Of a DNA stretch of 32,000 nucleotides, positions 1 through 32,000 are shown one piece after another. The notes beneath the pieces are model-generated. The model worked only from the letters and a program-made list of their open reading frames with translations. It was not told the DNA's origin and searched no databases. The position numbers and the translations under genes were made by a program. Source of the DNA: Dickeya dadantii NCPPB 898 (GTDB lineage Bacteria > Pseudomonadota > Gammaproteobacteria > Enterobacterales > Enterobacteriaceae); the NCBI RefSeq assembly GCF_000406145.1, contig NZ_CM001976.1, positions 3,935,372 to 3,967,371 of the forward strand, given 5' to 3'. How positions within the stretch are numbered: the stretch's first letter is position 1; the number at the start of each line of letters is the position of its first letter.

Positions 1-549
1 TACGCCTCGACCGGCATCGGAGCGCAATTCATGCCGGAGGTGGGTGACGAAGTAGTGCTGGGCTACTTCAACAACAACCCGTCCGACCCGGTGATCCTCG
101 GCAGCCTTTACAGCAGCAAGAACCCGCCGCCGGTCGCGCCGGAAGCCAAAAACACCCTCAAAACGCTGATGACCCGCAGCCAGCTGACGTTGCAGTTCAA
201 CGAAGAGGACAAGTCGATCACCCTGACCACCCCGGGCGGCAATCAGGCGGTGCTGAGCGACAAGGGCAAAACGGTGACGTTGCAGGACCAAAACGGCAAC
301 AGCGTCACGCTGGATTCCTCCGGCATCACGCTGGACAGCCCGAAGAACATCACCCTCAACGCCAAAGGGAAAATCGAGCTGAGCGCCGCCAGCGCCATCA
401 ACATCAGCGCCAAAGCCAACGTCACCGCCGAGGGGATGAACGTCAGCCTGTCGGCCAAAACCGGCCTGACCGCCAAGGGAACCGCCACCGCCGAACTGTC
501 GGCCTCCGGCCAAACGGTGGTGAAAGGCGGCATCGTGATGATCAACTAG
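1..549 (+). CDS. Contractile-injection spike/hub protein, VgrG-gp5 (Afp8-like) family, C-terminal part; 5' end lies outside the window
   Basis: Frame 1 is open from nt 1 (YASTGIGAQF precedes the first Met at 31). PEVGDEVVLGYFNNNPSDPVILGSLYS matches the conserved VgrG/gp5-type hub region. It is followed by short beta-helix-like repeats (SITLTTPGG, KTVTLQD, NSVTLDS, SGITLDS, KNITLNA). Stop TAG at 547-549. Confidence 0.8.
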   Translation, partial: YASTGIGAQFMPEVGDEVVLGYFNNNPSDPVILGSLYSSKNPPPVAPEAKNTLKTLMTRSQLTLQFNEEDKSITLTTPGGNQAVLSDKGKTVTLQDQNGNSVTLDSSGITLDSPKNITLNAKGKIELSAASAINISAKANVTAEGMNVSLSAKTGLTAKGTATAELSASGQTVVKGGIVMIN

Positions 550-639
550 CGTTGATTCACTGAGATCAGTAGAGCGGTGGTTATCGAATGCCTGAAAGAA
601 GTGAGCAACACAGATGCAGAAATAGCATGACCTTTTCTG

Positions 640-890
640 GCGTCAAAACTGTGCTGAGGCGTTCGACTTCGCCGGGTGAGCCGCACGGACGCGGCGAAAG
701 CCCGTGCCGCGTCTGGAACGCGTCACGGGCGGCCCGAACAGCGAAGGTGAATGCCGAAGGGACCGCGCCAGCGGCACAGTTTAGCCTCCCAGCCAGTGGT
801 CAAGGAGAGGCGGCGTTTGAGCCTCTCCTTGTCGTGCGTGCGACAACGTTTCAAGGGAAAAACAGGGCTTACCCCGCACGAAACCGCGCC
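640..890 (+). repeat. Structured intergenic repeat element, copy A (inverted homologue at 31745-32000)
   Basis: The reverse complement of 721-840 aligns colinearly with 31789-31906. Identical runs include cacgcacgacaaggagagg, cctctccttgaccactggctgg and gttcgggccgcccgtgacg; identity is roughly 80-85% by eye. Colinear similarity continues at ccccgcacgaaa (872-883 vs 31747-31758) and gcccgtgccg (700-709 vs 31991-32000). It contains a perfect 11-bp hairpin (801-811 / 821-831) and an outer imperfect stem (660-673 with 741-754). Element boundaries are approximate. Confidence 0.75.
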
Positions 891-964
891 AGGTTCTGCC
901 ATAACCCCATGAATTATCAATGCAACCAGGCTGCTTGCCGCAGCCAACAACGAGGGAAATAATT

Positions 965-1264
965 ATGCCACCCGCCGCCCGCCTAACCGATTTACACGCC
1001 TGCCCGATGGTGACGCCGGGGTTGCCGCCGATTCCCCATGTCGGTGGCCCGGTGATCGGCCCCGGCGTGCCAACGGTATTAATCGGCAAATTGCCGGCGG
1101 CGGTGCTGGGCGACAACTGTGTGTGCGTCGGGCCGCCGGACGTCATCGTCAAAGGCTCCGCCACCGTGCTGATCGGCGGTAAGCCCGCCGCCCGACTTGG
1201 CGATACCACCGCGCACGGCGGCAATATCGCGCTCGGCGACTTCACCGTATTGATAGGAGGATAA
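965..1264 (+). CDS. PAAR-domain spike-tip protein (Afp10-like), 99 aa, no extension domain
   Basis: ATG 965 is preceded by gaggga (952-957). The protein carries PAARLTD..CP, GPGVPTVLIG, GSATVLIGGKPAARLGD and HGG..G..TVLIGG, i.e. two PAAR motifs and the usual strand pattern. The upstream extension in the ORF track (920) lies in the repeat-derived region and lacks an RBS. Confidence 0.9.
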   Translation: MPPAARLTDLHACPMVTPGLPPIPHVGGPVIGPGVPTVLIGKLPAAVLGDNCVCVGPPDVIVKGSATVLIGGKPAARLGDTTAHGGNIALGDFTVLIGG

Positions 1265-1267
1265 ACC

Positions 1268-1687
1268 GTGGATAACGATCATGCGTTTCTCGGCACCGGC
1301 TGGGGGTTCCCGCCGCGGTTTGACGCCGCCGCACAAAGCATCGGGATGGTAAGCGGCGATGAAGACGTGCGGCAAAGCCTGGGGTTGCTGCTCTCCACCC
1401 GCCCCGGCGAACGCATCATGGCGCCGGAATACGGCTGCGATATTCAGGGCATGGTGTTTGAAGACCTCACCCTTTCCACCCTCACCGATATGAAGACCCG
1501 TATTGAACAGGCTATCCTGTTCTTCGAGCCGCGCATCCGGCTACAGGCGATTGTCATCGACAACGATCGGGCCATCGACGGCAAACTATTGATTCATATT
1601 GACTACACCCTGATCGCCACCAATACCCGCAGCAACATGGTGTACCCGTTCTATCTGCGCGAAGGCACGCTGGTGGCGAACCCATGA
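1268..1687 (+). CDS. GPW/gp25-family baseplate wedge protein (Afp9/TssE-like)
   Basis: GTG 1268 lies 4 nt after the PAAR stop, with ggagga at 1256-1261. GTGWGFPPRF and DVRQSLGLLLSTRPGERIMAPEYGCDI form the gp25/GPW signature. 139 aa. Confidence 0.9.
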   Translation: MDNDHAFLGTGWGFPPRFDAAAQSIGMVSGDEDVRQSLGLLLSTRPGERIMAPEYGCDIQGMVFEDLTLSTLTDMKTRIEQAILFFEPRIRLQAIVIDNDRAIDGKLLIHIDYTLIATNTRSNMVYPFYLREGTLVANP

Positions 1688-4600
1688 CGCGCATCTGGAA
1701 CACCCCGCTGCCGCCCCCGGCCACCTCGCAGCGGCAGCGACTGCCGCCGGCGCTGGAAGACGGCGCGTTCCTGGCGGATGAAATGTCGTTTGAAACGCTG
1801 CTGGTTCTGGCCAGCGATATCGCCGCGCAGCTGTCATTTGACGGCGGCGACGAGGCGCCGTTGTCATGTGATCGCAACGGCGCAGCGCCGCAGGGCAACT
1901 GGCAGGCGCTGTTCGCCAAAAGCGAAGTCACCGGTATGGCGATCATCCTGTCGTTCGACGCCGCGCTGGAACAAAACCGGTTTCGGCAGGCGCAGTCGCG
2001 CGGCATGGATCACACGCTGGCCTACCTGATCGCCCTCTACGCCAATCTGGATCACTGGTACCGCGCCTTTATTCCCGTCCAGACCGACAGCGCCGACCAC
2101 ATCAAACTGACCATCCAGACGGTACTGAAAGCACAACTGGTGCGGCCGTTCCAGTACCTGGTGGTTCTGGCGCAGGCGCTGGATAGCTACCGCCCGTCGC
2201 TGCTGGCCGACCCGCGCCTGCAAACCCTCGACCCGCTGTGGGGAATTCGCTACGACAACGGCCGGTTTATCGCCAGCGAGCAGCAACAGTTGCTGCAACA
2301 GCAGTTGCCGGGCATTCAACTGCTGGAAGAGCAGTTACAGCTCTGTTTTTCCGCCGCCGTCAACACCGTCAGCCAGCTACAGACAGACGGCCGCCGACGG
2401 CTGCAACAGGCGCTGTCTCACGCCGATCACGCCCCGGAAGTCGCGCTGTACCTGACCTTTCTGCAGCTATTCGCCCGAGCGCAGGCGCGGCTCAACCGCT
2501 TCACCGAACGACACCTCGACTTTTACTACCGTCAGGTGCTCCGGCAGCAACCGCAACCGCTCACAGCCGATGCGGTGTTCCTGAAACTGACGCAGGACAG
2601 CGGACTAACCACGCCGCTCTCGCTGGAGCGCGGCGTGGTCTTCAGCGGCGGGCAGGATGCCCGCTTGCACGACATCCTCTATCGCAGCGAGCAATCGCTG
2701 CAGGTTAGCGACGCCGAGGTCAAGCAGGTGCATTCGCTGCTGCTCAAACGGGACCCGTTGATGTCGCCGGAACGGGAGCTGGATTTCGTCACCGCCATCC
2801 ACAGCGACAGCCTGTGGCCGTGGCGCAGCGACCAGCCCCGTTCTCGCACGCTGCTGACGCTGTTTGGCGAAACGCCGGCCTTGCAGCGCTACCCGTCGCC
2901 GTCGGCGCCGGGCCTCGCCATCATCGACCCGGTGCTGTACCTGCCGGAAGGGCGGCGGCGGGTCAGCCTGACCGTCAATCTGGACGACGCGGCGCGGCCG
3001 CATCTGGCGCAACAGCTGCACCTGCTCAGGGATGCCCCGTACCCGACGGTATTGCGAAATCGGCTGACCACCCTGCTGCTGACGCTGGCGCAGACGCTGA
3101 CGCCGCTGCTGCCCGACGACGAGGCGCCCGTCGTTATCGCCGCGCTGGTCGACGCGCTGACGCCCCGTCAGTTACAGGCGTTGCGGCGCAGCCGGGACGA
3201 CGAAGCCATCAGCCTGCTGTACAAGTATTTTTTGCTTGGCGTACTGCGCCAGACCAGCGATCCCACGCGCGGTTGTCGAGTGCTGGGGCACCTGTTCAGC
3301 CGCCAGACCCTGAGCCGCACCGACTGGTTGAATGACAATGAACGACGGTTGATTCTGGACAAGAGCCGCCAGTTGCTGCCCGACGACAGCCAGCCGACGC
3401 TGGCGGAACTGCTGAACGGTAACCGGCAGGTCAATTTTTACCGCCTCTACAGCGAGCTGTTTACGCTGCGTCTCAGCACCGAAAGCGGCTGGCAAACCCT
3501 CGACGCTTACCGTATCCACCCGTTGGGCGCGGACGACGACGGCCCCTACGGCTTTCGGCTCACCTTCACCCTGTCGCCCGGCTTCGGGGCGGTCATTCCC
3601 TGCGACCCGACCCTTCATGGCGACCACTGGCATTACCGCGCGCCGGCGCTGCAACTGGAGATGAAACCGGAAACGCCGCTTTTTCCCTACTCGGTGTTCC
3701 GCGATTTCGTGCTGGGTCCGTTGCTCCTCGCCACGCGGGTATCCGGCGTGCGGACGTTCCAGGCAGACACCGGCGACGGCCCCGTCGACGTCGGCAAAAC
3801 CTTTTATCCGTTCGGCGCGCAACCCACCGGGCAGCCGTCGCTGACCCTCGCCAGTTACGAGCTGGCCCAAAAGCCGGTGCAGGACGTCACGCTGACGATC
3901 GACTGGGCAAATCTGCCGGGCGGCAGCGACGGCTTTCGCCAGCATTATCAGGGCTACCCCGGCGACTACGCTAACCATCGTTTCCGGGCACAGCTGGCCG
4001 TGTTGCGCGAAGGCGAGTGGAAGGCGGTCGGCAAGCCGTTTGCGCTGTTCGCCTGCGAACCGGGCAGCGATCGGCTGCGCCCCGACGTACAGATTCAGGC
4101 CGACCTGAAGCAGGATTTTCAGCCCGTCCGCCCCGCGGCCGACGCAGAGGCGTTCCATTTCGATCGCGCCAGCCGCAACGGTCTGATCCGCCTGTCGCTG
4201 TACGAGCCGGAACAGGGCTTCGGCCATCATCAGTACGGCTCGCTGCTTAGCCAGACGCTGATGCACAACGCCCGGCGCCGCAAACCGCTACCGCTTCCCC
4301 AGCCGCCCTATACCCCGGCGATCGACCGGCTGACGCTCGGCTATCGAGCCAGTACCCGGATCCATCCGGGTCACGCCGGCCATGAACCGTCGCCGGACAG
4401 CCATCTCCTGCATCTGCACCCGTTCGGCCATGAGGTGCTGTACCCGGCGGCCGAAAGCGGCGGGGATACCCGTCCGGTGGCCTTTTTGCCGCGCTACGAC
4501 GACGACGGTAACCTGTTTATCGGGCTACAGGCGTCGTCGCTCGGCGGCCCGCTGAACCTGTTTTTCCAGCTCGACGATCGGGCCGCGCCCACCGCTATCC

Positions 4601-5805
4601 GCCACCGTCAGGCGTTCCAGTGGCGTTATCTGGTCGACAACGACTGGCGCGTGCTGCCGCCGCATCAGGTGATCGCCGACACCACCCACGGTTTTATCAC
4701 CTCCGGCATCGTTACGCTGGATATCCCACCGGAGATCAACGACCGGCACACCGTAATGCCGGACAGGCTCTACTGGCTGCGGGTCAGTACCCGGCAGGGT
4801 ATCGGCGAGTACGCCGGTTGCCTGCACGTCGCCACCCACGTGGTGCGAGCCGTCCGCCAGTGGCCCGACGGGCAACCACCGGATGACGAGCCGACGCCAC
4901 CCGCCGCGGCGTCGGGCTGGCGAGCGCTCAATCCACCGGCCGGGCTGGGTGCCATTAGCCTGATGATGCCATCGACCGGCGGCGCGCCGCGGGAATCCAC
5001 CCGGCAGTTCCGGCAACGGCTGAGCGAACAGTTACGCCACAAAGGACGGGCGTTAACCGGCTGGGACTATGAACGGCTGGTGCTGCAACACTTTCCCGAT
5101 ATCGATCAGGCGCGCTGTTTTCCGCATACCCGTTTCGGCGTGCCGGGCCACCAGCCGGGGCAGGTGCTGCTGCTGGTGCGCCAGCGTCACCCCGCCTGCC
5201 GGCACCAGCCGTGCGAACCGCTGCACGCCAGCGCCGCGCTGCTGCACCGGATACAAACCTGGTTGCAGACGGTCGCGCCGCCGGGCGCCGCCATCGCGGT
5301 GCACTCGCCGGTGTACGAAAAGGTTCAGGTGCGCTGTAGCGTCGCCTTCCAGCCGGGGCACCATCCGGGACAGGCGCTGCGCCGGTTGAACCGGGATATC
5401 TCCGCTTACCTCTGCCCGTGGCGCGAAGACAGCATCAGCCAGGGATTTGGCACCAGCGTGGCGCTGCGGCAAATAGAAGCCTTTATCGCGCATCTGGATT
5501 ACGTGCGTTTCGTGACCGGCTTTTCACTGATCACCATCCGGCAGGCCGGCCTCGACCAAAGCGACGGGCAAACACAACGCTGGCGGCTGACCGACAGCGC
5601 CGCGCTGGCGTCGCACTACCAAACCGGCGATCCCGCCGTAAACAGCCCGAGTCTGACCGGGCTAACTCCGCGCTATCCCTGGAATATTATCCTGCCGGTC
5701 GAGCAGCATGACCTGCGGCTCATTTCGGACTTCAGGCCGCGCCCGCCGGAAGCCATCGGCATCGGCGACCTGACCATCGGCGACAGCTTCATCACCGTCC
5801 GTTAG
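1684..5805 (+). CDS. Large baseplate wedge protein with C-terminal Baseplate_J (gp6/Afp11-like) region; 1373 aa
   Basis: ATG 1684 overlaps the gp25 stop (ATGA). GRALTGWDYERLVLQHFPDIDQARCF (around residue 1120) is the typical Baseplate_J motif. I recognise no motif in the N-terminal ~900 aa. Position after gp25 fits an eCIS/phage baseplate. Confidence 0.75.
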   Translation: MTRIWNTPLPPPATSQRQRLPPALEDGAFLADEMSFETLLVLASDIAAQLSFDGGDEAPLSCDRNGAAPQGNWQALFAKSEVTGMAIILSFDAALEQNRFRQAQSRGMDHTLAYLIALYANLDHWYRAFIPVQTDSADHIKLTIQTVLKAQLVRPFQYLVVLAQALDSYRPSLLADPRLQTLDPLWGIRYDNGRFIASEQQQLLQQQLPGIQLLEEQLQLCFSAAVNTVSQLQTDGRRRLQQALSHADHAPEVALYLTFLQLFARAQARLNRFTERHLDFYYRQVLRQQPQPLTADAVFLKLTQDSGLTTPLSLERGVVFSGGQDARLHDILYRSEQSLQVSDAEVKQVHSLLLKRDPLMSPERELDFVTAIHSDSLWPWRSDQPRSRTLLTLFGETPALQRYPSPSAPGLAIIDPVLYLPEGRRRVSLTVNLDDAARPHLAQQLHLLRDAPYPTVLRNRLTTLLLTLAQTLTPLLPDDEAPVVIAALVDALTPRQLQALRRSRDDEAISLLYKYFLLGVLRQTSDPTRGCRVLGHLFSRQTLSRTDWLNDNERRLILDKSRQLLPDDSQPTLAELLNGNRQVNFYRLYSELFTLRLSTESGWQTLDAYRIHPLGADDDGPYGFRLTFTLSPGFGAVIPCDPTLHGDHWHYRAPALQLEMKPETPLFPYSVFRDFVLGPLLLATRVSGVRTFQADTGDGPVDVGKTFYPFGAQPTGQPSLTLASYELAQKPVQDVTLTIDWANLPGGSDGFRQHYQGYPGDYANHRFRAQLAVLREGEWKAVGKPFALFACEPGSDRLRPDVQIQADLKQDFQPVRPAADAEAFHFDRASRNGLIRLSLYEPEQGFGHHQYGSLLSQTLMHNARRRKPLPLPQPPYTPAIDRLTLGYRASTRIHPGHAGHEPSPDSHLLHLHPFGHEVLYPAAESGGDTRPVAFLPRYDDDGNLFIGLQASSLGGPLNLFFQLDDRAAPTAIRHRQAFQWRYLVDNDWRVLPPHQVIADTTHGFITSGIVTLDIPPEINDRHTVMPDRLYWLRVSTRQGIGEYAGCLHVATHVVRAVRQWPDGQPPDDEPTPPAAASGWRALNPPAGLGAISLMMPSTGGAPRESTRQFRQRLSEQLRHKGRALTGWDYERLVLQHFPDIDQARCFPHTRFGVPGHQPGQVLLLVRQRHPACRHQPCEPLHASAALLHRIQTWLQTVAPPGAAIAVHSPVYEKVQVRCSVAFQPGHHPGQALRRLNRDISAYLCPWREDSISQGFGTSVALRQIEAFIAHLDYVRFVTGFSLITIRQAGLDQSDGQTQRWRLTDSAALASHYQTGDPAVNSPSLTGLTPRYPWNIILPVEQHDLRLISDFRPRPPEAIGIGDLTIGDSFITVR

Positions 5806-5830
5806 TCCGTCGCTGCAACGCGCCCGGCAT

Positions 5831-5900
5831 GGCGAGATGAGAGGAACGGCGAGATAAGGGGAACGGAGAAATGAGGAATAACCGCGACATGAGGAGTATG
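5831..5900. repeat. Tandem 17-18-bp repeat x4 in the leader of the 275-aa gene
   Basis: Units: ggcgagatgagaggaac (5831-5847), ggcgagataaggggaac (5848-5864), ggagaaatgaggaataac (5865-5882), cgcgacatgaggagtatg (5883-5900). Each unit carries a GGA/SD-like core. The last unit supplies the gaggag SD for GTG 5904. Confidence 0.8.
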
Positions 5901-5903
5901 TGA

Positions 5904-6731: not shown

Positions 6732-6733
6732 GC

Positions 6734-9256
6734 ATGACGTCGCCGTCGTTTATTCCACGACAAACGCCGCTTGATGACCCTGACAGCGTCGCCAACCTGC
6801 TGCGCGCGGGGCTGGCGCAGGTTCAGCAACTCAGCGGCAACCGCTGGACCGACTACAACCTGCACGATCCCGGCGTCACCCTGCTGGAGCTGCTGTGTTT
6901 CGCCCTCACCGACCTGATTTACCGCAGCGATTTCGAGGTCGCGGATTACCTGACGCAGCCGGACGGCCGCCTCGACTTCGCCGCGCAGGGGCTGATGCTG
7001 CCGGAACAGATTTTCCCGCCCCGCCCCTGCACCCGACAGGATTATCAGCAGACGCTGCTGGACGCGATGGACGAGGTGGAACAGGCGTGGGTCACGCCGG
7101 ACGGTCAGGGGCGCTACCACATCGACCTGCTGCTGACCGAGGCGGCGCGCCAGCGTTGCGACCACCACCCGACGCTGCGCGACGAGATTGTCGAGGCGGC
7201 GGCGCATCTTTACCACCGCGCCCGCAATCTGGGCGAAGACCTTGCCGGGGTGCGCATCATCGACAGCCACGGGCTGCGGCTGTACGCCGACATCGAGCTG
7301 CAATATCACGATAACGCCGACGAAGTGGCGGCCGACATCTACTTTCAGGCCGAACAGTGGATCCGGGGCGACGAGAGCGACAATCGCCCCGGCAACTATT
7401 ACACCGACAACTATTATACCGACAACGATACCGATAACCGCGGCGCGCCGGGCGACGAGCGGGTTGCCGCCGCCCGACCGCTATCGGCGCTCTACACCCG
7501 GTTGATCAACATCGACGGCGTCGGCCACATCCGGCAGTTACGGCTGATCCCACAGTCCTGTCGGGACGACAATCCCGATCATGCGCCGGACCACTTCAGC
7601 CCCGGCGACTGGATTCTGCTGCCGAAAAAGCACGACGATATCGACCTCAATCTGACCCATCAGGGCCACCCGCTGCCGGTTGATTTCAGCGCCATGAGCA
7701 TCCGGCTGGTGCGGCGTCAGGCGCAAAACGGCACGCTGCGCGAACACATCCGCCGCCAGACCGCCACCCTGATCCCGCCGCCGCACGGTAGCTGGCGCGC
7801 GCTGGCGGATTACCGGTCGATTCAGTCGCTTTTCCCCGGCGTCTACCGGCTGGACGCACCGCGCGTCCCGGCAGCGCTGAACCGGCAGGAACAGCGACAA
7901 ATACAGCAATTTCGCGGCTATCTGCTGCTGTTCGAGCAACTGATGGCTAACTTCTGCGCCAACCTGGCCAACCTGCGCGAGCTGTTTTCGCCGTCCACCG
8001 ACACCGAACGCAGTTACGTCTTCAACCTGCTGGATGATGAACAGTTCCGCGGGGTGGATCTGCTGTATCCCGACGACGCGGCGGCGCGTTTTCATCACCT
8101 GCTGGCCGACGTCGACCACTACCCGGAGCGCAAAGGGCGGCTGCTCGACTATCTGCTGGCGTTATACGGTGAAACGCTGGACGCCCGGCTTTGGCGTCAG
8201 CCGGGCGACGACAGCGCGCAGGGCCGCCGGCAGCTTGAGTACCCGCGCCGGTTTATCCAGGCCATCGACCGCCTGACCCGCGATCGCGGCGCCGGCTTCA
8301 ACACCCGCCGGCCGATGACCGAACGGGAAAACCGGGGCGGGTTCGCCGACCGGGTAGCGCTACTGCTCGGGATGGACGACGCCGACGCCTGGCCTTATAG
8401 CCGGACGCTGGCCCGGCAGGGGTGGCAGTTGCTGGCCGATGACGCCTTCCTGCACTGCGCAGCGGGGCAATCGCATCTGCAATGGCTGGATCAGCCGGCT
8501 CTCGACAGTTTGCTGGATGTGCCGCTGAGCGACGCGCCGCCGGGCGGCGTCGACGTGGCGACGGCGCACGATCTACTGGCGCTGCGCCTGCGGCCATTGC
8601 CGGTCGCCCTGCTGCAACGCGGCGTGATGCTGGAACACTACCGCATTCTGCCGCCCGGCGCCGACGGCTGCTATCAGGCGCTGTTTCGGCTACCGCCGGC
8701 GCCGGGGGCGCAAAACGGGTTATGGCTGCATCTGGGCGCCAGCCGCCAGCCGGCGCAACTGGTGCGCGTCATCAATCAGCTGCGCCGTGAGCTTATCCGG
8801 CTGAATCAGTGCTGCGAAGGGGTGTACGTGGTGGAGCACCTGCTGTTGCGCCCGGCGCTCGGCGGTGATGACGCCCTCCCCGACGGCGACCCGTTTCCCG
8901 GCCAGCTCAGCGTGATCCTGCCCGGTTACACCGCGCGCGGCGGCAACCCGGTGTTCCGGGCGCAGGCCGACGCGCTGATCGCCCGGCAGTGCCCGGCCCA
9001 TCTGCTGCCGCGCTGTCACTGGCTCGATATTCACGCCACAAACGAGTTTGAAACCGCCTGGCTGGCGTGGCTCGACGCCAGACGGGACTCCGCCGGCCAA
9101 CCGTCGTGCGACGACGCCGCCGCTCGGCTGACGGCGTTTTTGCAATCGTTGCACGCGCATTCCCCTTTTCCTCACACAGCCTTTCCTTACCCCCGCAATC
9201 CTCAACCACCCTTTCCTCAACCACCCTTTCCTCAACAACAAGGACAGGACGCATGA
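6734..9256 (+). CDS. Second baseplate wedge protein (Afp12/gp7-like or Afp11 N-terminal-like), 840 aa
   Basis: ATG 6734 lies 2 nt after the upstream stop, with gaggag at 6723-6728. The N-terminal WTDYNLHDPGVTLLELLCFALTDLIYR is the helical-core motif found at the N-terminus of CIS baseplate wedge proteins. It contains in-frame 15-bp repeats (NYYTD x2-3 at 7394-7438; PQPPF x2 at 9200-9229). Confidence 0.7.
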   Translation: MTSPSFIPRQTPLDDPDSVANLLRAGLAQVQQLSGNRWTDYNLHDPGVTLLELLCFALTDLIYRSDFEVADYLTQPDGRLDFAAQGLMLPEQIFPPRPCTRQDYQQTLLDAMDEVEQAWVTPDGQGRYHIDLLLTEAARQRCDHHPTLRDEIVEAAAHLYHRARNLGEDLAGVRIIDSHGLRLYADIELQYHDNADEVAADIYFQAEQWIRGDESDNRPGNYYTDNYYTDNDTDNRGAPGDERVAAARPLSALYTRLINIDGVGHIRQLRLIPQSCRDDNPDHAPDHFSPGDWILLPKKHDDIDLNLTHQGHPLPVDFSAMSIRLVRRQAQNGTLREHIRRQTATLIPPPHGSWRALADYRSIQSLFPGVYRLDAPRVPAALNRQEQRQIQQFRGYLLLFEQLMANFCANLANLRELFSPSTDTERSYVFNLLDDEQFRGVDLLYPDDAAARFHHLLADVDHYPERKGRLLDYLLALYGETLDARLWRQPGDDSAQGRRQLEYPRRFIQAIDRLTRDRGAGFNTRRPMTERENRGGFADRVALLLGMDDADAWPYSRTLARQGWQLLADDAFLHCAAGQSHLQWLDQPALDSLLDVPLSDAPPGGVDVATAHDLLALRLRPLPVALLQRGVMLEHYRILPPGADGCYQALFRLPPAPGAQNGLWLHLGASRQPAQLVRVINQLRRELIRLNQCCEGVYVVEHLLLRPALGGDDALPDGDPFPGQLSVILPGYTARGGNPVFRAQADALIARQCPAHLLPRCHWLDIHATNEFETAWLAWLDARRDSAGQPSCDDAAARLTAFLQSLHAHSPFPHTAFPYPRNPQPPFPQPPFPQQQGQDA

Positions 9257-12200
9257 CGCAGCCACACCGGATTCACACCGCCAGCCTGACGCTCGACTTT
9301 CGCCATTCGTCCGAAGCGGAACGGTTCGAGCGCGACGCCCCACGCTTTGTGCAGCAGCAGTTGTTGCCGTTGATTGACACGCTGTTCGATCGGTTTTCGC
9401 CGCCCCATCAGCTGTGGGTGATCGACCACCTGACGTTCGATCTGGGCGCGCTGCCCGCGTCGGATCTGGAATCGGCGCTGCTGGCGGCGCTACAACAGCA
9501 ACTGACGGATGCGCTGCGCGCGCGGCAACCGTCCGACGCGACCCAGCCGCAGAAAGACCACGACGGCGACGCCGCCGAAATACAGGTGCTGGACGGCCCG
9601 GCGGCGCAATGGCGTCAATTGCAGTTTTTCCTGCAACACGGCGTGATGCCCTGGCATTATTCCAACCGCCAGGGCTGGCGACAGGCAGACAGCCACCGCC
9701 ACTGGCTGGCCGACGCCGTGCGCCGGCACTACGCCGAAGTAAACCGGCTGCTGAACGCCAGCGCCCGCCCGGCCAGCCCGATCGCCCGGTTGGTTTCTCA
9801 ACTACCGGCGACCGCGTTAAACGGCTGGCTGGAACAACTGACGCCCGCCCATCAGGACATCGCGCTGCGTTGTCTGGCCGCACAGCCGGAACCGGATGCG
9901 ATGCCCGCCGCGCTACGGGCGCGGCTGCATCGCTACTGGCACCAGCGCATCCATCAGGCGCTGCGCCAGCGCCGCCTGCGACAGGAGTTGCTGCCGATCT
10001 GGGCCACGCTGCTCGGCGCCCAGCGCGCACGATTTCTGCTGGCGCTTTACGCCTGCGGGCAACAGCCCGAGGTGGTGCGCGGCATGGCGCAGGCGGTGGA
10101 TGACGACGCCTTCGACGATCTGCTGACGCTGTTGGCACCGCAGGCGCAACCGTTCATCCAACAGGTAATCAGACATCCGGCGTGGTTCCGCCATCCCGAA
10201 CCTACCGTCGCCACGGACCAGAGCGCCCCGCTGGATCTGCTGCTGCGTGAATTCACCCTGCATTATCTGCTGGTGCAGCGCGGCAGCCAGTTCAACAAGC
10301 GGCGCTACATGGCCGGGCTGGTCGGCCGCATGGCGGCGCACCACAACATCGAGCGGACCGACGTGCTGCAAACGCTGTACCTGCAACTGGCGGCGTGGCC
10401 GGGCGACCAGGCGCTGAAACAGCCGTTGCTGTCGCTGCTGACCACGCTGTGGGGAGAAATGGCGCCGCTCGCCCGCGCGCTGCCCCATCTGCCGGACATG
10501 ACGCCGGGCGCTCAGCCGGTGCGACACCGGCCGACTACCGGCGACGCGGTTAGACATCGGGAACCGGTCGCGGCAGAAACCACCGACCACAGGCTCCGGC
10601 AACAGTGGGCAGAGGCGCTGCAACAGGCTGATGACGCGGCGCTGAATCGGGTGTGGCGCCAGTGCTCGCCCGCCATGCTGCTGACGTTACGCCCGCTGTT
10701 GATGCGCTGCGGCCAGCAGAGTCAGGTACGCCAGCGCTGGGTGGTGCGTTTTTCCACGGCGACGCAGTATCGCCTGCTGACCCTGCTGGAACCGGCGGAC
10801 GCGCCGTTCATCCGCGACCTGATGGACGACGTGCGCGCCAGCCAGCCGACTATCGCCGCCCGTTCGGCCAACGCCCCCGGCGAATCGTTGTTGACGCACA
10901 GCCTGTGGAGCCTCACGTTCAGCTATCTGCTGGCGGAACGCGGCAGCGAATTCAACCGACAAAGCTATCTGGACGCGCTGCTGCGGCAACTGGCGGCGCA
11001 TCATAACCTGTCGCGCCAGGCGCTGATCGACGCCTTGCTGCACCATCTGCACAGCGCTGCGGCCGCTACCGCGGTGCGCCGGGCGCTGCTGACGATGCTC
11101 ACCCGGCTGCGCGAAAGCGAGCCTCCCGCACCGCCGCCGCAACCGGCACCAGCACCAGCACCAGCACCAAAACCCCCAGCGTCATGCCACATTGACGCGG
11201 ATCTCCCTGTGCCGGCGCACCCGTTGCTTGACGCCGCCTGTTATCAGTACCTGTACGACGTACTGGCCCTCGGCGACCCGACGCGCCGCTTTGAGCCGCC
11301 CGCTGAGGCGCAAACCGCCTGGCGCGCCGCGTCATCGTATGCCGGTAATGACCTACAGCGCTGCGTGCAGCGGTTACTGACTCACCACCCGTTGCTGCTC
11401 CAGCGCTGGCTGGCGGCATCAACGCACCACCCCGCCGGTTGGCTGCGGCTGTGCGCCGCCCTGCGCCCGTCGCAGGCCGCCCAGTTGCTCGCCCAGTTGG
11501 TCGCGCTGCGTCAGCCAGCGAGCCACCTGCGTAGCCTGACGAGCACGCTCGACAACGTCACCCGCCGCCTGATCGTGGCACAGCGGCAGGCGTTTTACGG
11601 GCAGATGATCGACGCGCTGGCCGCCAACCGCACGCCGGACTGGCTGGCGATACGCGATGCGGTCAGCCAGCTCGCCCCGTCGTCTGACGTGGTCGCGCCT
11701 CAGCCGGTCAACGCCATAACGGCCGATGCTTCGGTGCGACCGGCGATGGACGACGACAGCGCGTTGGCGTTGTTGAACCGGCTCACACGCCACGCTTCAG
11801 CGACGATAGCCGACGACGACATTGCCGCGCTCTCCGCCGCACTGGCGCGCCTGCTGCCCACGCAGCCGGAGGCGGTTCGCCGTTTTCTGCTGCCCGCCCT
11901 GCGATCGGCGGACACGGCCGAGCGGCTGGCGGACGCGCTATCCGACACCCTGCATACGGCCTTACTGCTGCTGTTGTGCCGTGCCGACTTTCTGGCGCTG
12001 CACCCATATGGCCGTTTTATCGCCAACCTCTGCCATCGCCACCCGGCCTACCACGGCGCGGCGCAGGTGCTGGAGAGCCAGCTGTGGCGCACGCTGTACC
12101 ACCATCTGTTCGTTGCGGGTTCACCGCCGGATATCGCCGCCTTTATCATCGATTATCTGGACAGACTGGCTACCAATGAGCCACTACGCAGCCATCAGCC

Positions 12201-13161
12201 GTCGCCGGCGGCGTTTTACCGTTTTCTGCTGCAACAGGCGCAGGCCGAGCGGTTACCCATGACCCACGTGCTGACCGAACGCCTGCAACGGTTGATCACC
12301 GCCGCCGGCCTGCATCAGGAGCCGCCGGCGATTGTCGCCGTGGCGAATGCCGGGCAAGCGCCTGAACCCGCCATCGTCGCCACGCCGCCGGTTGAACCGT
12401 CAAACGTCGCCTATGCGCCGCGGCTAGCGGCGGCGCCGGAGATGGCAGTACCGGGCATTGCAGTACCGGACATTGCAGTACAGGACATTGCAGCACAGGA
12501 CATTGCAGCACCAGATAGTGCAGCATCGGATAGCGCAGTGCCGGATATTGCGATGCCGAATAATGCAGCGTCGAATAGTGCTGTGTCAGACATGGCGGTG
12601 CCGGACACCGCGGTTCCGGCGGTTATCGACTGGCGGGGCGACGAGACGTTGAACACCGACGAACCGGTGCCGATCGCCAATGCCGGGCTGGTGCTGGTCG
12701 CCCCCTATCTCCCTCGCCTGCTGACGCGGCTGGCGCTGGTGCAGGACGGCGCATTCCCGCAGCCGGACGCCCGCTATCAGGCCATCCACCGCCTGCAATA
12801 TCTGGTCGATCAGGGACAAAACTGCGCCGAATACCACCTGGCGCTGAACAAACTGCTGTGCGGCCTGCCGCTCAACGCGCCGATTCCGTTAACGCCGCCG
12901 CCTGACGCCGCCGCCCGCGACACGCTGGACGCATTGCTGGCCGCCATCCTTCAGCACTGGAATGCGCTAGGCCACACTTCGGTTGACGGCCTGCGCCAGA
13001 CCTTTCTGCAACGCGAAGGCACCCTGTGGCGGCAGGCGGACAGTTGGAAACTGGAGGTGGCTCCCGGCCCGTTCGACATGCTGCTCGACCGGCTGCCGTG
13101 GGGGTATTCGACCATCAAATACCCCTGGATGGATCGGCCGCTGCACGTGGTCTGGCGTTGA
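9253..13161 (+). CDS. Contractile injection system tape-measure (Afp14-like, CIS_TMP family) protein, 1302 aa
   Basis: ATG 9253 overlaps the upstream stop (ATGA). The N-terminus HRIHTASLTLDF...LWVIDHLTFDLGALP and the C-terminus ANAGLVLVAPYLPRLLTRL...LLDRLPWGYSTIKYPWMDRPLHVVW match what I recall as the conserved ends of CIS tape-measure proteins. There is an internal duplicated module (LLTLL.P...PFI ... YLL..RGS.FN...Y...L...AAHHN) at about nt 10110-10460 and 10770-11120. The 9067 start in the ORF track only adds an Arg/Ser-rich off-gene extension. Confidence 0.7.
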   Translation: MTQPHRIHTASLTLDFRHSSEAERFERDAPRFVQQQLLPLIDTLFDRFSPPHQLWVIDHLTFDLGALPASDLESALLAALQQQLTDALRARQPSDATQPQKDHDGDAAEIQVLDGPAAQWRQLQFFLQHGVMPWHYSNRQGWRQADSHRHWLADAVRRHYAEVNRLLNASARPASPIARLVSQLPATALNGWLEQLTPAHQDIALRCLAAQPEPDAMPAALRARLHRYWHQRIHQALRQRRLRQELLPIWATLLGAQRARFLLALYACGQQPEVVRGMAQAVDDDAFDDLLTLLAPQAQPFIQQVIRHPAWFRHPEPTVATDQSAPLDLLLREFTLHYLLVQRGSQFNKRRYMAGLVGRMAAHHNIERTDVLQTLYLQLAAWPGDQALKQPLLSLLTTLWGEMAPLARALPHLPDMTPGAQPVRHRPTTGDAVRHREPVAAETTDHRLRQQWAEALQQADDAALNRVWRQCSPAMLLTLRPLLMRCGQQSQVRQRWVVRFSTATQYRLLTLLEPADAPFIRDLMDDVRASQPTIAARSANAPGESLLTHSLWSLTFSYLLAERGSEFNRQSYLDALLRQLAAHHNLSRQALIDALLHHLHSAAAATAVRRALLTMLTRLRESEPPAPPPQPAPAPAPAPKPPASCHIDADLPVPAHPLLDAACYQYLYDVLALGDPTRRFEPPAEAQTAWRAASSYAGNDLQRCVQRLLTHHPLLLQRWLAASTHHPAGWLRLCAALRPSQAAQLLAQLVALRQPASHLRSLTSTLDNVTRRLIVAQRQAFYGQMIDALAANRTPDWLAIRDAVSQLAPSSDVVAPQPVNAITADASVRPAMDDDSALALLNRLTRHASATIADDDIAALSAALARLLPTQPEAVRRFLLPALRSADTAERLADALSDTLHTALLLLLCRADFLALHPYGRFIANLCHRHPAYHGAAQVLESQLWRTLYHHLFVAGSPPDIAAFIIDYLDRLATNEPLRSHQPSPAAFYRFLLQQAQAERLPMTHVLTERLQRLITAAGLHQEPPAIVAVANAGQAPEPAIVATPPVEPSNVAYAPRLAAAPEMAVPGIAVPDIAVQDIAAQDIAAPDSAASDSAVPDIAMPNNAASNSAVSDMAVPDTAVPAVIDWRGDETLNTDEPVPIANAGLVLVAPYLPRLLTRLALVQDGAFPQPDARYQAIHRLQYLVDQGQNCAEYHLALNKLLCGLPLNAPIPLTPPPDAAARDTLDALLAAILQHWNALGHTSVDGLRQTFLQREGTLWRQADSWKLEVAPGPFDMLLDRLPWGYSTIKYPWMDRPLHVVWR
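12430..12624 (+). repeat. In-frame 15-bp (5-codon) tandem repeat, ~13 units, inside the tape-measure gene
   Basis: Units gcagtaccgggcatt / gcagtaccggacatt / gcagtacaggacatt / gcagcacaggacatt / gcagcaccagatagt and so on encode AAPEM-AVPGI-AVPDI-AVQDI-AAQDI-AAPDS-AASDS-AVPDI-AMPNN-AASNS-AVSDM-AVPDT-AVPAV. Confidence 0.9.
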
Positions 13162-13182
13162 ACGCCGCTTGCCGGGCAGCCT

Positions 13183-13265
13183 CCGTATTACCGACAGCCA
13201 TGCATTACCGACAGCCATGCATCACCGACGACCATGCATTACCGACAACATGCATCACCGACCAA
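13183..13265. repeat. Tandem 16-17-bp repeat x5 (CATGCAT[T/C]ACCGAC...) between the tape-measure gene and the 822-aa gene
   Basis: Units: ccgtattaccgacagc (13183-13198), catgcattaccgacagc (13199-13215), catgcatcaccgacgac (13216-13232), catgcattaccgacaa (13233-13248), catgcatcaccgaccaa (13249-13265), followed by a partial catac. There are no spacers, so this is not a CRISPR array. Confidence 0.85.
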
Positions 13266-13287
13266 CATACGGGAGAACGCCATCGCC

Positions 13288-15756
13288 ATGAGGATTCACC
13301 GCTTCACCGGGCGCAACGCGACACTGACGCCGCTGCTGGCCTTGTTGCTTCCATTGGCATTGCTGCTCCCGCCGGCTGCCTATACCGCACCGCCGGAATC
13401 GGCGTCCGCGCCGTCCGTCGCGCCCGACGCCCCGACTTACGCCCAATGCCTGCAAGCGCTGGAGCGGATGGACAGCCGACGCTTTACCCGCATCACGCAG
13501 GATAAACTGGCGATCATCTACCACGACAATTCGGCGTATCAGGCGGATTATCACCAACCGGGCGACTACCTTGCCGACGGGCTGTTCGGCCCCAAGACGC
13601 GCAAATGGCTGGCGACGTTTTGCGGTGAATTCGACATCACGCCGCCGCCCAACCGCAACACCTTCGCCGAAGTGCTGCTGGTGTCGCTAGCCAAGGTGTC
13701 GGAACTTGACCAGCTCTACCCTTACTGGCGTAACCGCATGGGCGCGCCGGAACTGTTGCAGTGGCCGGCGCAGAAAACCATCGACTTCCTCACGACGCAG
13801 ATGGACGGCGTCATCCCCCCGCCGCCGGAGACAACGTCGCCGCAGTATTACGCCCTGACGGAGGACGACCTGCGCAAACTGGCGGAGCGCAACGCCATCC
13901 AGACCCAACTGGACGACCTGATCGGCCACCAGTTCACCAGCCCGGTGGAACTGAACAACGCGGTGCGCCCGTTGATCCGCCAGTTGCACGGCAATGAGGA
14001 GCAGATCCTGCGACAGATTGTGGACGCCGTACCGGCCAGCGACGGTAACCGCAGCCGTCCCCAACCCGCCGCCGCGCGTTCCACGCCGGGGGACAGCACA
14101 CTGGAGGACAACCCGACGGACGACAGGGCGCAGCCCGACGATCAGGCGCGTGCCGATGTCGCCGACGCCCGGCAACACAGCGACGCCGGCACCGCCGCGC
14201 CGGTTACCGTCTATTCGCTGAATCAGAATGCGCTGGAGCTGGCTTATCTGGATCTCAATCTGGTGTCGGTAGACAAAGACGCACTGGCGCGGCTGGCAAC
14301 GTTGAAAGACACCCCGTTCGCCGACCGCTACCAACTGGCGGTGGCGATGAAAATGGCCGGGCTTGACCGCCTCAGCCACCAGAGCCGGCAACGCATTCTG
14401 GAGATCGCCCACAAAGACGGCGCGCCTGCGGCAACTACCCCGCCGATGGTCTGGCGCGCCCCCGCCGACTGCGGCTGTGAAGACAGCACCCCGAACGTTA
14501 ACGGCGCCGACGCCACCTTCTACGGTTTTTATCCTTACTGGCAGCCGCTGACCGACGGGCAAACCCTCAACTTTCGTCAACTGGACCGCATCGGCTATTT
14601 CTCCGCCGCGGTCTTGCCGGGCGCGCGCGACCCGCAACTGGTGCTGCCGCCCAACTGGCGCAAAACCCGCCCTTATAACGATTTTATCCGGCTGGCGCAC
14701 CGCTACCGCACCCATGTCGATCTGGTGGTGTCCACGCCGAGAAAACTGCCGTCGCCGGCGCTGGTCAGCCTGTTCACCTCGTCACTGATCGCCCGTCTCG
14801 GCGCCAGCATTCAAACCCCGCTTGACGACGACTGGATCAACCGCGCCAAACCCTGGCTGACCTTCGGTTTGAGTCCGTCGGATACGATGGCGGACGGCGT
14901 AACGCTGGACTTCGACCTGACCCGGCTCACCACCCGCGCCGGTCAGCAGACGTTTATGCGCTTTGTGCAGGCGCTGCGCAAAACCCTCACGCCCGTCGGC
15001 CAAACGCCCGAGACGCCGCCCCGCTACGCCATCAACCTGATGGTGCCGGTGGAGCCGCTGCTGAAGGGCCAGGGGTTTTATACGCTGGATAACCTGCGGG
15101 AACTGCTACCGTATGTGGATCGGTTTATTCTGCAGCCGGAGCCCCCTGACGGCATGGTCAAACCGCGTCGGGCGCTCGACCAGTTGAGCGATCTGCGCCA
15201 TTTTTTAAGCCAGCAGCCGCAGGCCGCCGTTCCTGAGCTGTATCGCAAGATGGTGCCGATCCTGATTACCGACGCCAACCGCCAGCAGACGACTGATCTG
15301 GCGGAACTGGTGCGCTACAGCAGTTGGAGCTTTCTCAGCGCCGCTTACTGGCCGCTGCCGCTCGACGAAGCCAGCCAGCAGCTCATCAGCCAGACGTACT
15401 ACCCCACCGCCGACCTGCCGGCGCCGCTGGCGCAGATAGCCGCGGCAGTCAATGCGGTTATCGACATCATCTGCCCCAACCGCTGGGTGCTGCGCCTGAT
15501 CCTGTTTATCACCTTCTGGGGGATTGTCGTCACCGGCGTCGCCAGCCTGTGGCTGTTCCCGGTGCGCAAGGTCACCGACTCGCTGTGGTTCGCCGGTTTC
15601 GTGGTGCTGTTCGCCGCGGCGCTAATGCTGGCGCTGGTAGCCGACCCGTACTGGCAACAATACCAGACGCTGATCCTGCTACTGTTCGCCGCCGTGGTGG
15701 TGACCATCGCCGTACTGCAACGCATCAGGAAAAACCGGCGGGAGCGGAATCCGTAA
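13288..15756 (+). CDS. Exported, C-terminally membrane-anchored protein with a peptidoglycan-binding-like motif and a degenerate GH18 (chitinase-like) region; 822 aa
   Basis: ATG 13288 gives MRIHRFTGRNATLTPLLALLLPLALLLPPAAYTAPP, a signal-peptide-like start. ADGLFGPKTRKWLATFCGEF (nt 13573-13632) resembles the PG_binding_1 core (DG.fG..T...l..FQ). A Pro/Asp/Ala-rich linker follows. FYGFYPYW (14518-14541), LDRIGYFSA, HVDLVVS, ADGVTLDFDL (14890-14919), YAINLMVP and VDRFILQ follow the GH18 TIM-barrel strand pattern, but the DxxDxDxE motif reads DGVTLDFD, so the catalytic Glu is absent. Three hydrophobic helices lie at nt ~15480-15720, followed by a basic tail RIRKNRRERNP. Domain calls are by eye. 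Confidence 0.5.
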   Translation: MRIHRFTGRNATLTPLLALLLPLALLLPPAAYTAPPESASAPSVAPDAPTYAQCLQALERMDSRRFTRITQDKLAIIYHDNSAYQADYHQPGDYLADGLFGPKTRKWLATFCGEFDITPPPNRNTFAEVLLVSLAKVSELDQLYPYWRNRMGAPELLQWPAQKTIDFLTTQMDGVIPPPPETTSPQYYALTEDDLRKLAERNAIQTQLDDLIGHQFTSPVELNNAVRPLIRQLHGNEEQILRQIVDAVPASDGNRSRPQPAAARSTPGDSTLEDNPTDDRAQPDDQARADVADARQHSDAGTAAPVTVYSLNQNALELAYLDLNLVSVDKDALARLATLKDTPFADRYQLAVAMKMAGLDRLSHQSRQRILEIAHKDGAPAATTPPMVWRAPADCGCEDSTPNVNGADATFYGFYPYWQPLTDGQTLNFRQLDRIGYFSAAVLPGARDPQLVLPPNWRKTRPYNDFIRLAHRYRTHVDLVVSTPRKLPSPALVSLFTSSLIARLGASIQTPLDDDWINRAKPWLTFGLSPSDTMADGVTLDFDLTRLTTRAGQQTFMRFVQALRKTLTPVGQTPETPPRYAINLMVPVEPLLKGQGFYTLDNLRELLPYVDRFILQPEPPDGMVKPRRALDQLSDLRHFLSQQPQAAVPELYRKMVPILITDANRQQTTDLAELVRYSSWSFLSAAYWPLPLDEASQQLISQTYYPTADLPAPLAQIAAAVNAVIDIICPNRWVLRLILFITFWGIVVTGVASLWLFPVRKVTDSLWFAGFVVLFAAALMLALVADPYWQQYQTLILLLFAAVVVTIAVLQRIRKNRRERNP

Positions 15757-15803
15757 CCACAGGCGGCAGTCTGAATCGTTCCTGCTATTGGGTTGGGCCG
15801 CTA

Positions 15804-17915: not shown

Positions 17916-17927
17916 GCCGGCTCCCGG

Positions 17928-31744: not shown

Positions 31745-32000
31745 ATTTCGTGCGGGATAAACGGTGTAATTTCTTTGCTGCTTCATTGCACGCACGACAA
31801 GGAGAGGTGCAAGCGCCACCTCTCCTTGACCACTGGCTGGTGGCTAAACTGCGGCGCTACGCGCTACCTTCGGCGTTCGACTTCGCGGTTCGGGCCGCCC
31901 GTGACGTGATTACTCGCCCCATCCCTGGGGCTCGCCCTACGGGCCAGCGTAAACGCTGTTCAAAAACGCTCCCGACGTTTTTGTCCAACACGGCACGGGC
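31745..32000 (-). repeat. Structured intergenic repeat element, copy B (inverted relative to copy A; truncated by the window end; mosaic)
   Basis: See copy A for the alignment. The hairpin here is caaggagaggtg/cacctctccttg (31798-31809 / 31817-31828), with a compensatory change relative to copy A (C:G -> T:A at the stem top). It carries an ~84-nt insertion (31907-31990) absent from copy A. That insertion contains its own hairpins (gcccca/tggggc; aaaaacg/cgttttt at 31962-31982). Confidence 0.75.

Follow-up and report, generated by a model that had tools for sequence, protein, structure and literature searches.

This work is about a 32,000-nucleotide stretch of Dickeya dadantii NCPPB 898 (contig NZ_CM001976.1, positions 3,935,372 to 3,967,371), which we will call the window, and mainly about its first 15,756 nucleotides (nt). 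ORF listing and translation show that a single run of same-strand open reading frames (ORFs) spans window 1-15756. An earlier note on this DNA took the run for the distal half of an extracellular contractile injection system (eCIS) with an unusual gene content. We believe it is probably the distal half of a contractile injection system (CIS) of the SalCIS type, that it would work by a mechanism like that of SalCIS, and that it occupies a fixed site in Dickeya without the ATPase and effector arm of its relatives. This judgment comes from sequence comparison and from analogy with the Salmonella machine. The features of the run are collected in Table 1.

Table 1. Genes and repeats of the run, and the gene that follows it, in window positions (aa, amino acids; TRF, Tandem Repeats Finder)
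Feature	Position	Strand	Remarks
cis8 3' end, VgrG-like spike	1..549	+	Phage_base_V E 5e-10; runs off 5' window edge
Dispersed repeat, ~250 nt, stem-loop-rich	636..883		inside the 415-nt cis8-cis10 spacer
cis10, PAAR spike tip, 99 aa	965..1264	+	PAAR_motif E 2.6e-23
cis9, gp25-like sheath initiator, 139 aa	1268..1687	+	GPW_gp25 E 1e-26
cis11, enlarged gp6/Baseplate_J-like cage protein, 1373 aa	1684..5805	+	Baseplate_J E 1.6e-9
17-nt tandem repeat, 2.6 copies	5831..5875		cis11-cis13 spacer, TRF
cis13, Afp13-like, 275 aa	5904..6731	+	no Pfam match
cis12, gp6/7-like cage protein, 840 aa	6734..9256	+	no Pfam match; weak N-terminal TIGR02243
cis14, tape-measure protein (ruler), 1302 aa	9253..13161	+	CIS_TMP E 1e-110, two stretches
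17-nt tandem repeat, 4.5 copies	13187..13262		cis14-cis20 spacer, TRF
cis20, inner-membrane protein, 822 aa	13288..15756	+	no Pfam match; 840-aa call begins 13234
LacI-family regulator, convergent, outside the system	15804..16862	-	LacI and Peripla_BP_3 domains; marks island end

Every domain call made in the earlier note was right. Pfam finds the VgrG C-terminus, PAAR, gp25, Baseplate_J (confined to residues 1090-1244 of the cis11 product) and CIS_TMP, the last in the protein that had been called a tape measure. NCBIfam models for VgrG, PAAR, TssE and baseplate proteins match the window proteins only below their cut-offs, and the ruler has no solved homologue among PDB sequences. In other genomes (L001-L006) the full-length cis8 encodes 596 aa with Phage_GPD. 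The genes do form one string with four tight junctions, ATGA overlaps at 1684 and 9253 and gaps of 3 nt (1264/1268) and 2 nt (6731/6734). The string is not tight throughout, however, since three junctions of 415 nt (550-964), 98 nt (5806-5903) and 126 nt (13162-13287) are loose, and there are repeats in all three. The 840-aa call for the last gene is probably about 18 codons too long because its ATG at 13234 falls within a 17-nt tandem repeat; homologues begin at M19, which is window 13288.

SalCIS, from Salmonella enterica subsp. salamae, was described by electron cryo-microscopy and is placed in eCIS clade Ib beside AlgoCIS and T6SSiv; a distinct CIS cluster is defined by Cis20, by Cis13 and by an extended Cis11 (Ejaz et al. 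2026, PMC13266070). Every testable Dickeya protein finds its best solved homologue in SalCIS. Cis11 matches SalCis11 (9rce_A, 1323 aa) at E 1e-227 in one collinear match of residues 14-1371 to residues 2-1308, and a tblastn alignment starts at about residue 435 of the protein of a SalCIS-like contig, L033. The extended domain IV of SalCis11 is a helical extension at residues 419-549 (PMC13266070). Cis12 matches SalCis12 (9rce_B, E 9e-121), followed by tCIS All3315, Algo12, Afp12 and Pvc12, and gp25 matches 9rce_C at E 1.5e-45. Cis20 matches SalCis20 (9r9a_B) at E 1e-135 over residues 43-815, and the profile A1 gives E 0. In the upstream half, taken from assembly L002, the sheath matches SalCIS 9r9h_T over its full length at E 3e-264, with AlgoCIS next at 2e-111. 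A 265-aa protein there matches the SalCis16b cap (9r9n_C) at E 4e-4. The next-ranked PDB matches come from tCIS (7b5h) and AlgoCIS (7aeb), and Afp and PVC lie far lower.

The same gene order is found well outside of Dickeya. A pattern scan with one genome per species gave 21 loci, of which one is D. oryzae and one repeats an earlier Celerinatantimonas locus; the others lie in Vibrio, Marinomonas, Oceanospirillum, Kluyvera, Cedecea, Mangrovibacter, Symbiopectobacterium, Erwinia and an enterobacterium. Wherever the flank reaches, in about 15 other species, the order cis11-cis13-cis12-cis14-cis20 is identical, with an AAA gene interposed between cis14 and cis20 in Celerinatantimonas and Oceanospirillum. 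Identity of the non-Dickeya proteins to those of the window is 50-58% for Cis13, 35-44% for Cis11, 29-41% for Cis12 and 31-41% for Cis20, and the ruler can be aligned with them over its last 170-200 residues only. The departures from the Afp/PVC layout listed in the earlier note are real, then, but they are not peculiar to this locus. They are explained because the PAAR-gp25 order, the small gene between the wedges and the membrane protein after the ruler are all standard in the SalCIS cluster.

The gp25 protein is identical in six genome assemblies (L001-L006), including CP002038.1. This last accession we take to be D. dadantii 3937. Its coordinates agree with the NC_014500 coordinates listed for that strain by Geller et al. 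(2021, PMC8213781). The 10 kb upstream holds the same genes in 6/6 loci: a 162-171-aa ORF, a Pvc16_N cap (190-195 aa), the 265-aa protein, one 517-aa sheath, two gp19 tube genes, a short ORF of 60-77 aa, CIS_tube (215 aa) and the 596-aa VgrG. Beyond these lie a flavin reductase and, in several of the six, a single-stranded-DNA-binding protein (SSB). Neither of the findings that the earlier note said would overturn its reading turned up, since there are no Tss or capsid genes upstream and the ruler does resemble CIS_TMP. By sequence, the proximal half is the cap Cis16a, the cap adaptor Cis16b, the sheath, two tubes, a 60-aa plug-like ORF and the tube initiator. The 162-171-aa ORF stands directly 5' of cis16a in all six (L002 1696-2211) and could be a regulator or an accessory gene. 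We rejected the idea that the 171-aa form is a Cgo2-like protein, as it has no Pfam match, HExxH motif or tblastn similarity.

This locus is already known; a public eCIS catalogue has listed it since 2021, and its kind was described in 2026. Geller et al. find eCIS loci in 86% of Dickeya genomes, and eCIStem numbers this operon 67419 for D. dadantii 3937 (NC_014500:4009655-4040152) and 66873 for Ech1591. The operon labels are afp16, afp2_3_4, afp1_5 (twice), afp7, afp8, afp10, afp9, afp11, afp13, afp12 and afp14, with afp7 and afp13 coming from the Ech1591 rows. In the operon table neither Dickeya operon carries an afp15 label, and in the text of the paper available to us we did not find this remarked upon. 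The modestly new part is the Dickeya form without ATPase or effector arm.

All of the Dickeya loci we checked occupy one chromosomal site beside a LacI/ABC/GH88 cluster, and the LacI flank is also present in D. lacustris, D. chrysanthemi and L037. A common site implies vertical inheritance since the ancestor of the genus. As had been noted earlier, a convergent LacI gene begins 48 nt past the last gene. The junction between cis20 and LacI (window 15757-15803) is an insertion hot spot. It is empty in the window and L037. In 3937 it holds AAA_21 and DUF4276 genes (Dda3937_03074/03075), in Ech1591 AAA_21 together with a transposase and a gene of unknown function, in D. lacustris a gene for an unknown protein of 257 aa (L035 12519-13292), and in one of the D. 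chrysanthemi strains an island of six genes that resembles a biosynthesis cluster (L036 13167-18698).

The gene between the two wedges was called fibre-like in the earlier note, and this is the first of two assignments that we would replace. Cis13 has neither a Pfam nor a PDB match, and its single-sequence AlphaFold2 (AF2) model is unusable (pLDDT 37). It is 53% identical to a 276-aa ORF at the same position in L033, and the Ech1591 orthologue is the one labelled afp13 in eCIStem (PMC8213781). It is the best-conserved distal protein, at 50-58% across orders (about 15 species) against roughly 29-44% for its neighbours. The trimeric SalCis13 has been proposed as a link between baseplate and membrane (PMC13266070). 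By analogy we propose that Cis13 is a conserved putative baseplate-to-membrane adaptor rather than a variable receptor-binding fibre; it fits that role because it is the best-conserved distal protein, unlike a variable receptor-binding protein.

The second is the last gene of the run. It had been described as an envelope protein that ends the block, with the ruler as the last recognisable core gene. The envelope protein is Cis20, as its match to 9r9a makes plain, and it is a core component of the system and not a boundary gene. In alignment A1 the family begins with a signal peptide, a DGxFGPxTRxWL peptidoglycan-binding-like motif and a variable S/T-rich linker; these are followed by a FYGFYPYW...DG[VI]TLD[FI]D[LV] domain, three C-terminal hydrophobic helices and a basic tail. 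Hydropathy agrees, giving a signal h-region and three C-terminal hydrophobic segments. Among 1.84 billion proteins the family has 278 representatives at E <=1e-3. A search that used the last gene as query gave homologues only in Dickeya, Celerinatantimonas, Vibrio and metagenomic contigs. Remote relatives match PG_binding_1 (E 1.7e-15), with Glyco_hydro_18 below threshold. The best Foldseek matches of an AF2 model of mediocre quality (pLDDT 59.8) are GH18 chitinases at E ~6e-3, and we use this model only as a hint of a GH18 fold since an experimental structure of a homologue exists. SalCis20 is a Sec-dependent inner-membrane homodimer with three transmembrane (TM) helices and a periplasmic SleL-like hydrolase fold; it localises to the membrane, and purified particles contain almost none of it (PMC13266070).

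Cis20 is also, by its position, the orthologue of a published toxin. EAT3 is Dd1591_0669, an unlabelled gene adjoining afp14 in Ech1591 that was toxic in E. coli and yeast and annotated "Chitinase?" (Geller 2021, PMC8213781). As far as the published text could be checked, the correspondence between EAT3 and Cis20 is new. Geller et al. and we are therefore looking at the same locus in different ways: there the last gene is called a toxin and the 275-aa gene a tail fibre, and here they are Cis20 and Cis13.

A first alternative is that the locus is a canonical extracellular eCIS of the Afp/PVC type, with particles released by lysis and EAT3 as the injected toxin. We consider this unlikely, but it is the best of the alternatives. 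The eCIStem criteria are at least ten core genes including afp12/13/14/16 and no T6SS or phage-head genes within 10 kb (Geller 2021); the locus is listed under these, and our own Pfam scans agree. Expression of Dd1591_0669 killed E. coli and yeast, the authors guessed it to be a chitinase, and Foldseek also puts the central domain of Cis20 among the GH18 chitinases. On the other hand, Cis20 bears a signal peptide and three TM helices, and its place in the operon, directly after the ruler or after an intervening AAA gene, is kept across several orders at 31-41% identity. The genes that do vary like toxins are found elsewhere, adjoining DUF4157 in the other arm (an APOBEC-like deaminase and 394-aa and 754-aa proteins). 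Toxicity is to be expected anyway from an over-expressed wall-hydrolase-like membrane protein and can be explained without injection. The listing of the locus as an eCIS stands, but the word extracellular is doubtful because the closest characterised relative is associated with the inner membrane and its release was not seen (PMC13266070).

The arm is where Dickeya differs from its relatives. Of the non-Dickeya loci with enough flank, 18/19 (13/14 species) have an AAA ATPase no further than about 6 kb from cis20, an 8-kb Erwinia mallotivora contig being left out of the count as too short. A DUF4157/eCIS_core gene of about 150 aa was detected beside the AAA gene in 16 of these loci. Next in the arm comes a variable gene; in Kluyvera and the SalCIS-like contig, for example, the products are 754 and 394 aa long and unrelated. 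By sequence this arm is SalCis15 (the AAA ATPase), SalCgo2 (HEXXH/DUF4157) and SalCgo1. The variable gene of the Symbiopectobacterium arm (L015 12794-14362) encodes 522 aa with an AID/APOBEC-like deaminase domain (NAD1, SNAD4) and is a candidate effector.

The arm is absent at 8/8 Dickeya loci (the window, 3937, Ech1591, D. oryzae, D. lacustris, two D. chrysanthemi strains and L037), as searched with PF00004, PF13699 and tblastn in the window, 10 kb upstream and 10 kb downstream. Across all 32 kb Pfam finds no gene for AAA+ (PF00004), DUF4157, a T6SS or a capsid. The earlier note was right that neither an ATPase nor a cap follows the ruler. It had also concluded that payload and ATPase must be upstream or absent, unless the system works differently. 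They are absent from the locus and do not lie upstream, and in the relatives the arm lies downstream, with the AAA gene on the convergent strand in most non-Dickeya loci. Mangrovibacter phragmitis (L012 12600-22580) has a second, independent SalCIS-type locus with no arm within 10 kb, where xylose-utilisation genes follow cis20; its sister species M. plantisponsor retains the arm.

Could the ATPase and cargo be supplied in trans? Some Dickeya have a second, different eCIS operon (D. fangzhongdai, D. dianthicola, some D. dadantii and D. zeae), and it does encode an AAA ATPase, P0175, that is 69% identical to a SalCIS-type ATPase, as well as a 1355-aa DUF4157 toxin. In D. fangzhongdai CP193488.1 (L030 1-15732), beside argS, this operon runs through a 1252-aa wedge, a 947-aa protein, a ruler and unknowns of 585 and 379 aa to the AAA ATPase, a 91-aa ORF and the toxin. 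It has its own baseplate and ruler, however, and neither Cis13 nor Cis20 was found in the L030 1-15732 portion. With the Symbiopectobacterium ATPase as query, P0175 is the only Dickeya protein cluster among the best 120 matches, which reach down to about 60% identity. Among 15 listed of its 18 members none is labelled D. chrysanthemi, D. oryzae, D. lacustris or D. undicola, and two are labelled just 'Dickeya'. The list of multi-operon genomes includes D. dianthicola, D. fangzhongdai, MK7 and some D. zeae, but it has neither 3937 nor Ech1591 (Geller et al.). As these two are not among the multi-operon genomes, the SalCIS-type operon persists there without an eCIS-type ATPase, and we find supply in trans a rather improbable explanation.

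Another way to account for a missing arm is to suppose that the locus is a decaying remnant, with no working machine left after the ATPase and effectors were lost. One could point to the arm missing at every Dickeya locus checked, to the repeat element inserted between cis8 and cis10, to the expanded intergenic tandem repeats and to a truncated cis12 in one assembly. Yet the ORFs are all intact in the window and as far as D. lacustris (61% identity), and the shared chromosomal site implies that they have been inherited vertically. The ratio of nonsynonymous to synonymous substitution (dN/dS, Nei-Gojobori) between the window and D. oryzae is 0.12 for Cis13, 0.16 for Cis20, 0.20 for the C-terminal part of Cis11, 0.24 for Cis12 and 0.28 for the ruler, with dS about 0.73-0.83 across the five genes. 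A neutral remnant would come near 1 and gather stop codons. The distal genes are therefore under purifying selection and not decaying, and a remnant strikes us as quite improbable. Dickeya SalCIS-type operons have lost, or never had, the arm genus-wide and are nevertheless under selection, which is new as far as the published text could be checked.

A type VI secretion system (T6SS), prophage tail module or R-type tailocin has next to no chance of being right, as the earlier note also held: VgrG, PAAR, gp25 and sheath are common to all contractile systems, but no TssB/C/K/M, ClpV, capsid, terminase or lysis gene was found in the window plus 10 kb upstream, the families specific to CIS (Pvc16_N, CIS_tube, CIS_TMP) do occur here, the locus is bordered upstream by SSB and flavin reductase and downstream by LacI with a sugar ABC transporter, and the known Dickeya tailocin P2D1 is described as a P2-like particle, while this locus matches CIS families and not P2-type tail genes.

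The repeats deserve a few words of their own. The dispersed repeat occurs in reverse orientation, at 84-86% identity, in L001, L002, L003, L005 and L006, and is larger in L004; a second partial copy lies at window 31746-31906. In Ech1591 the cis8-cis10 gap is only 70 nt and the repeat is absent. Rfam finds nothing in the whole window at gathering thresholds, nor in the 415-nt spacer at E up to 1. We tried and rejected the idea that the cis8-cis10 element is an invertible phase-variation switch. The copies are about 85% identical, with one flank up to 98%, the sequence past the element differs between strains, and there is the further copy 31 kb off. Taken together, these points fit independent insertions of a dispersed repeat.

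The tandem repeat upstream of cis13 varies from about 2 to 5 copies among D. dadantii strains and is found in none of the other species; in D. lacustris that position carries another tandem repeat, unrelated and with a unit of about 15 nt. The cis14-cis20 repeat is absent from the corresponding spacers of D. oryzae, D. lacustris and D. chrysanthemi. Both 17-nt repeats precede the genes of proposed membrane adaptors, cis13 and cis20. There are also two in-frame 15-nt repeats. One, in the ruler at 12436-12551 (TRF), has 7.7 copies and encodes a 'PDIAV'-like peptide, and any change in its copy number would alter the length of the ruler protein. The other has 4.7 copies at the Cis12 C-terminus (9167-9236) and encodes 'PFPQP'. 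A scan for promoters and terminators gave counts equal to chance expectation, with no terminator-like site at the 3' end of the string.

The rest of the window, from 15.8 to 32 kb, is housekeeping: LacI, a sugar ABC transporter, GH88, solute-binding proteins, a BadF-type ATPase and a ZnuABC-like transporter. The sugar-utilisation cluster includes an 826-aa ORF (21244-23724, minus strand) without a Pfam match, flanked by GH88 and a solute-binding protein. D. lacustris and L037 keep it at this position, and its product may be a polysaccharide-degrading enzyme not yet characterised.

It is useful to set the Dickeya locus beside the known systems. With SalCIS it shares the distal order cis11-cis13-cis12-cis14-cis20 (the same in L033), the proximal set of cap, cap adaptor and sheath, an enlarged Cis11, a conserved Cis13, a Cis20 of the same topology and a ruler of similar length (1302 aa in Dickeya against 1343 aa in L033). 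The distal proteins compared with L033 are just 33-53% identical, however. Dickeya also lacks the convergent Cis15-Cgo2 (DUF4157)-Cgo1 arm, its window has repeat elements in three spacers, and its site is fixed genus-wide whereas SalCIS is found in few strains.

AlgoCIS (Algoriphagus), tCIS (Anabaena) and T6SSiv (Amoebophilus) make up clade Ib and related systems. AlgoCIS and tCIS supply the next-best solved homologues of Cis11, Cis12, gp25 and sheath, but at a much lower similarity (E 1e-38 to 1e-111). As is proposed for SalCIS, tCIS and T6SSiv are membrane-attached and not released. None of the three has a solved Cis20 counterpart, and in tCIS it is extensions of the Cis12-like protein itself that serve as the anchor. 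Afp (Serratia) and PVC (Photorhabdus), of clade Ia, share the sheath, tube, VgrG, PAAR, gp25, Afp11/12-like wedges, ruler and Afp16-like cap. They differ in gene order, and Dickeya has one long sheath protein in place of three, a Cis11 about twice as long and a membrane protein encoded in the operon, without the Afp15/Pvc15 ATPase, the downstream toxins or the adenovirus-like fibre.

What would such a machine do? By analogy with SalCIS, the particle would assemble in the cytoplasm on a Cis11/Cis12 cage around the VgrG-PAAR spike, and the 1302-aa ruler would fix its length (about 600 nm in SalCIS). The baseplate would dock at the inner membrane through Cis13 and the three Cis20 TM helices, the periplasmic part of Cis20 may bind or remodel the cell wall, and contraction would push the spike outward. 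SalCIS particles of 600-700 nm do adjoin the inner membrane in tomograms, and their secretion or release was not detected (PMC13266070). The Pvc15 AAA ATPase aids payload loading into the PVC tube (PMC11495950). Because the Dickeya locus has no ATPase/DUF4157/toxin arm, its cargo would be limited to something borne on the spike or encoded in trans, or there may be none and a role independent of cargo.

Several points weigh against the SalCIS-type reading, and they should be stated plainly. The Dickeya system is known from its genes alone and the mechanism is carried over from SalCIS. Even there membrane anchoring, in whichever orientation, is a hypothesis (PMC13266070). Every operon of the SalCIS cluster encodes a Cgo2 homologue (PMC13266070), a stated feature of the cluster that the Dickeya operon by its sequence fails to show; this absence of DUF4157 is established for the loci and their 10-kb flanks. 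In L004 (GCA_023507855.1) cis12 stops early at about codon 699 (15467-17980) and no gene is called, which is either a strain-specific inactivation or an assembly error. The toxicity of EAT3 in E. coli and yeast (PMC8213781) fits a payload role. The putative hydrolase activity of Cis20 is uncertain as well. The GH18 acid motif reads DG[VI]TLD[FI]D[LV] in 14/14 aligned homologues, placing an Asp where GH18 enzymes have the catalytic Glu. It is this Asp, found in all of the aligned homologues, that makes the activity uncertain. D559 and D561 of Cis20, numbered on the 840-aa ORF, are invariant.

We still believe the SalCIS-type reading is probable, and it leads to a further idea that we hold only tentatively. 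Dickeya may keep, genus-wide and under selection, a SalCIS-type machine that has no loading ATPase, DUF4157 protein or linked toxin and whose function is independent of cargo in the tube lumen. If this is true, it could be a spike-only puncturing device, or it could serve a cell-autonomous, envelope-triggered wall remodelling or cell death in which Cis13 and Cis20 are central, and the published toxin EAT3 would be the membrane and cell-wall adaptor of the machine. A word of caution follows for other loci too: when the gene that ends an eCIS operon proves toxic on over-expression, this is not enough to name it a toxin. For the SalCIS type, known only since 2026, the modes of action under consideration are membrane-anchored firing, release and a defensive role. 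Dickeya would be a natural minimal version of it, a structural operon plus two membrane-adaptor genes without the ATPase and effector arm, in tractable plant pathogens such as 3937. This makes it possible to test whether Cis15 is needed for assembly, what role the machine has without loaded cargo, and whether Cis20 is a payload or a part of the envelope.

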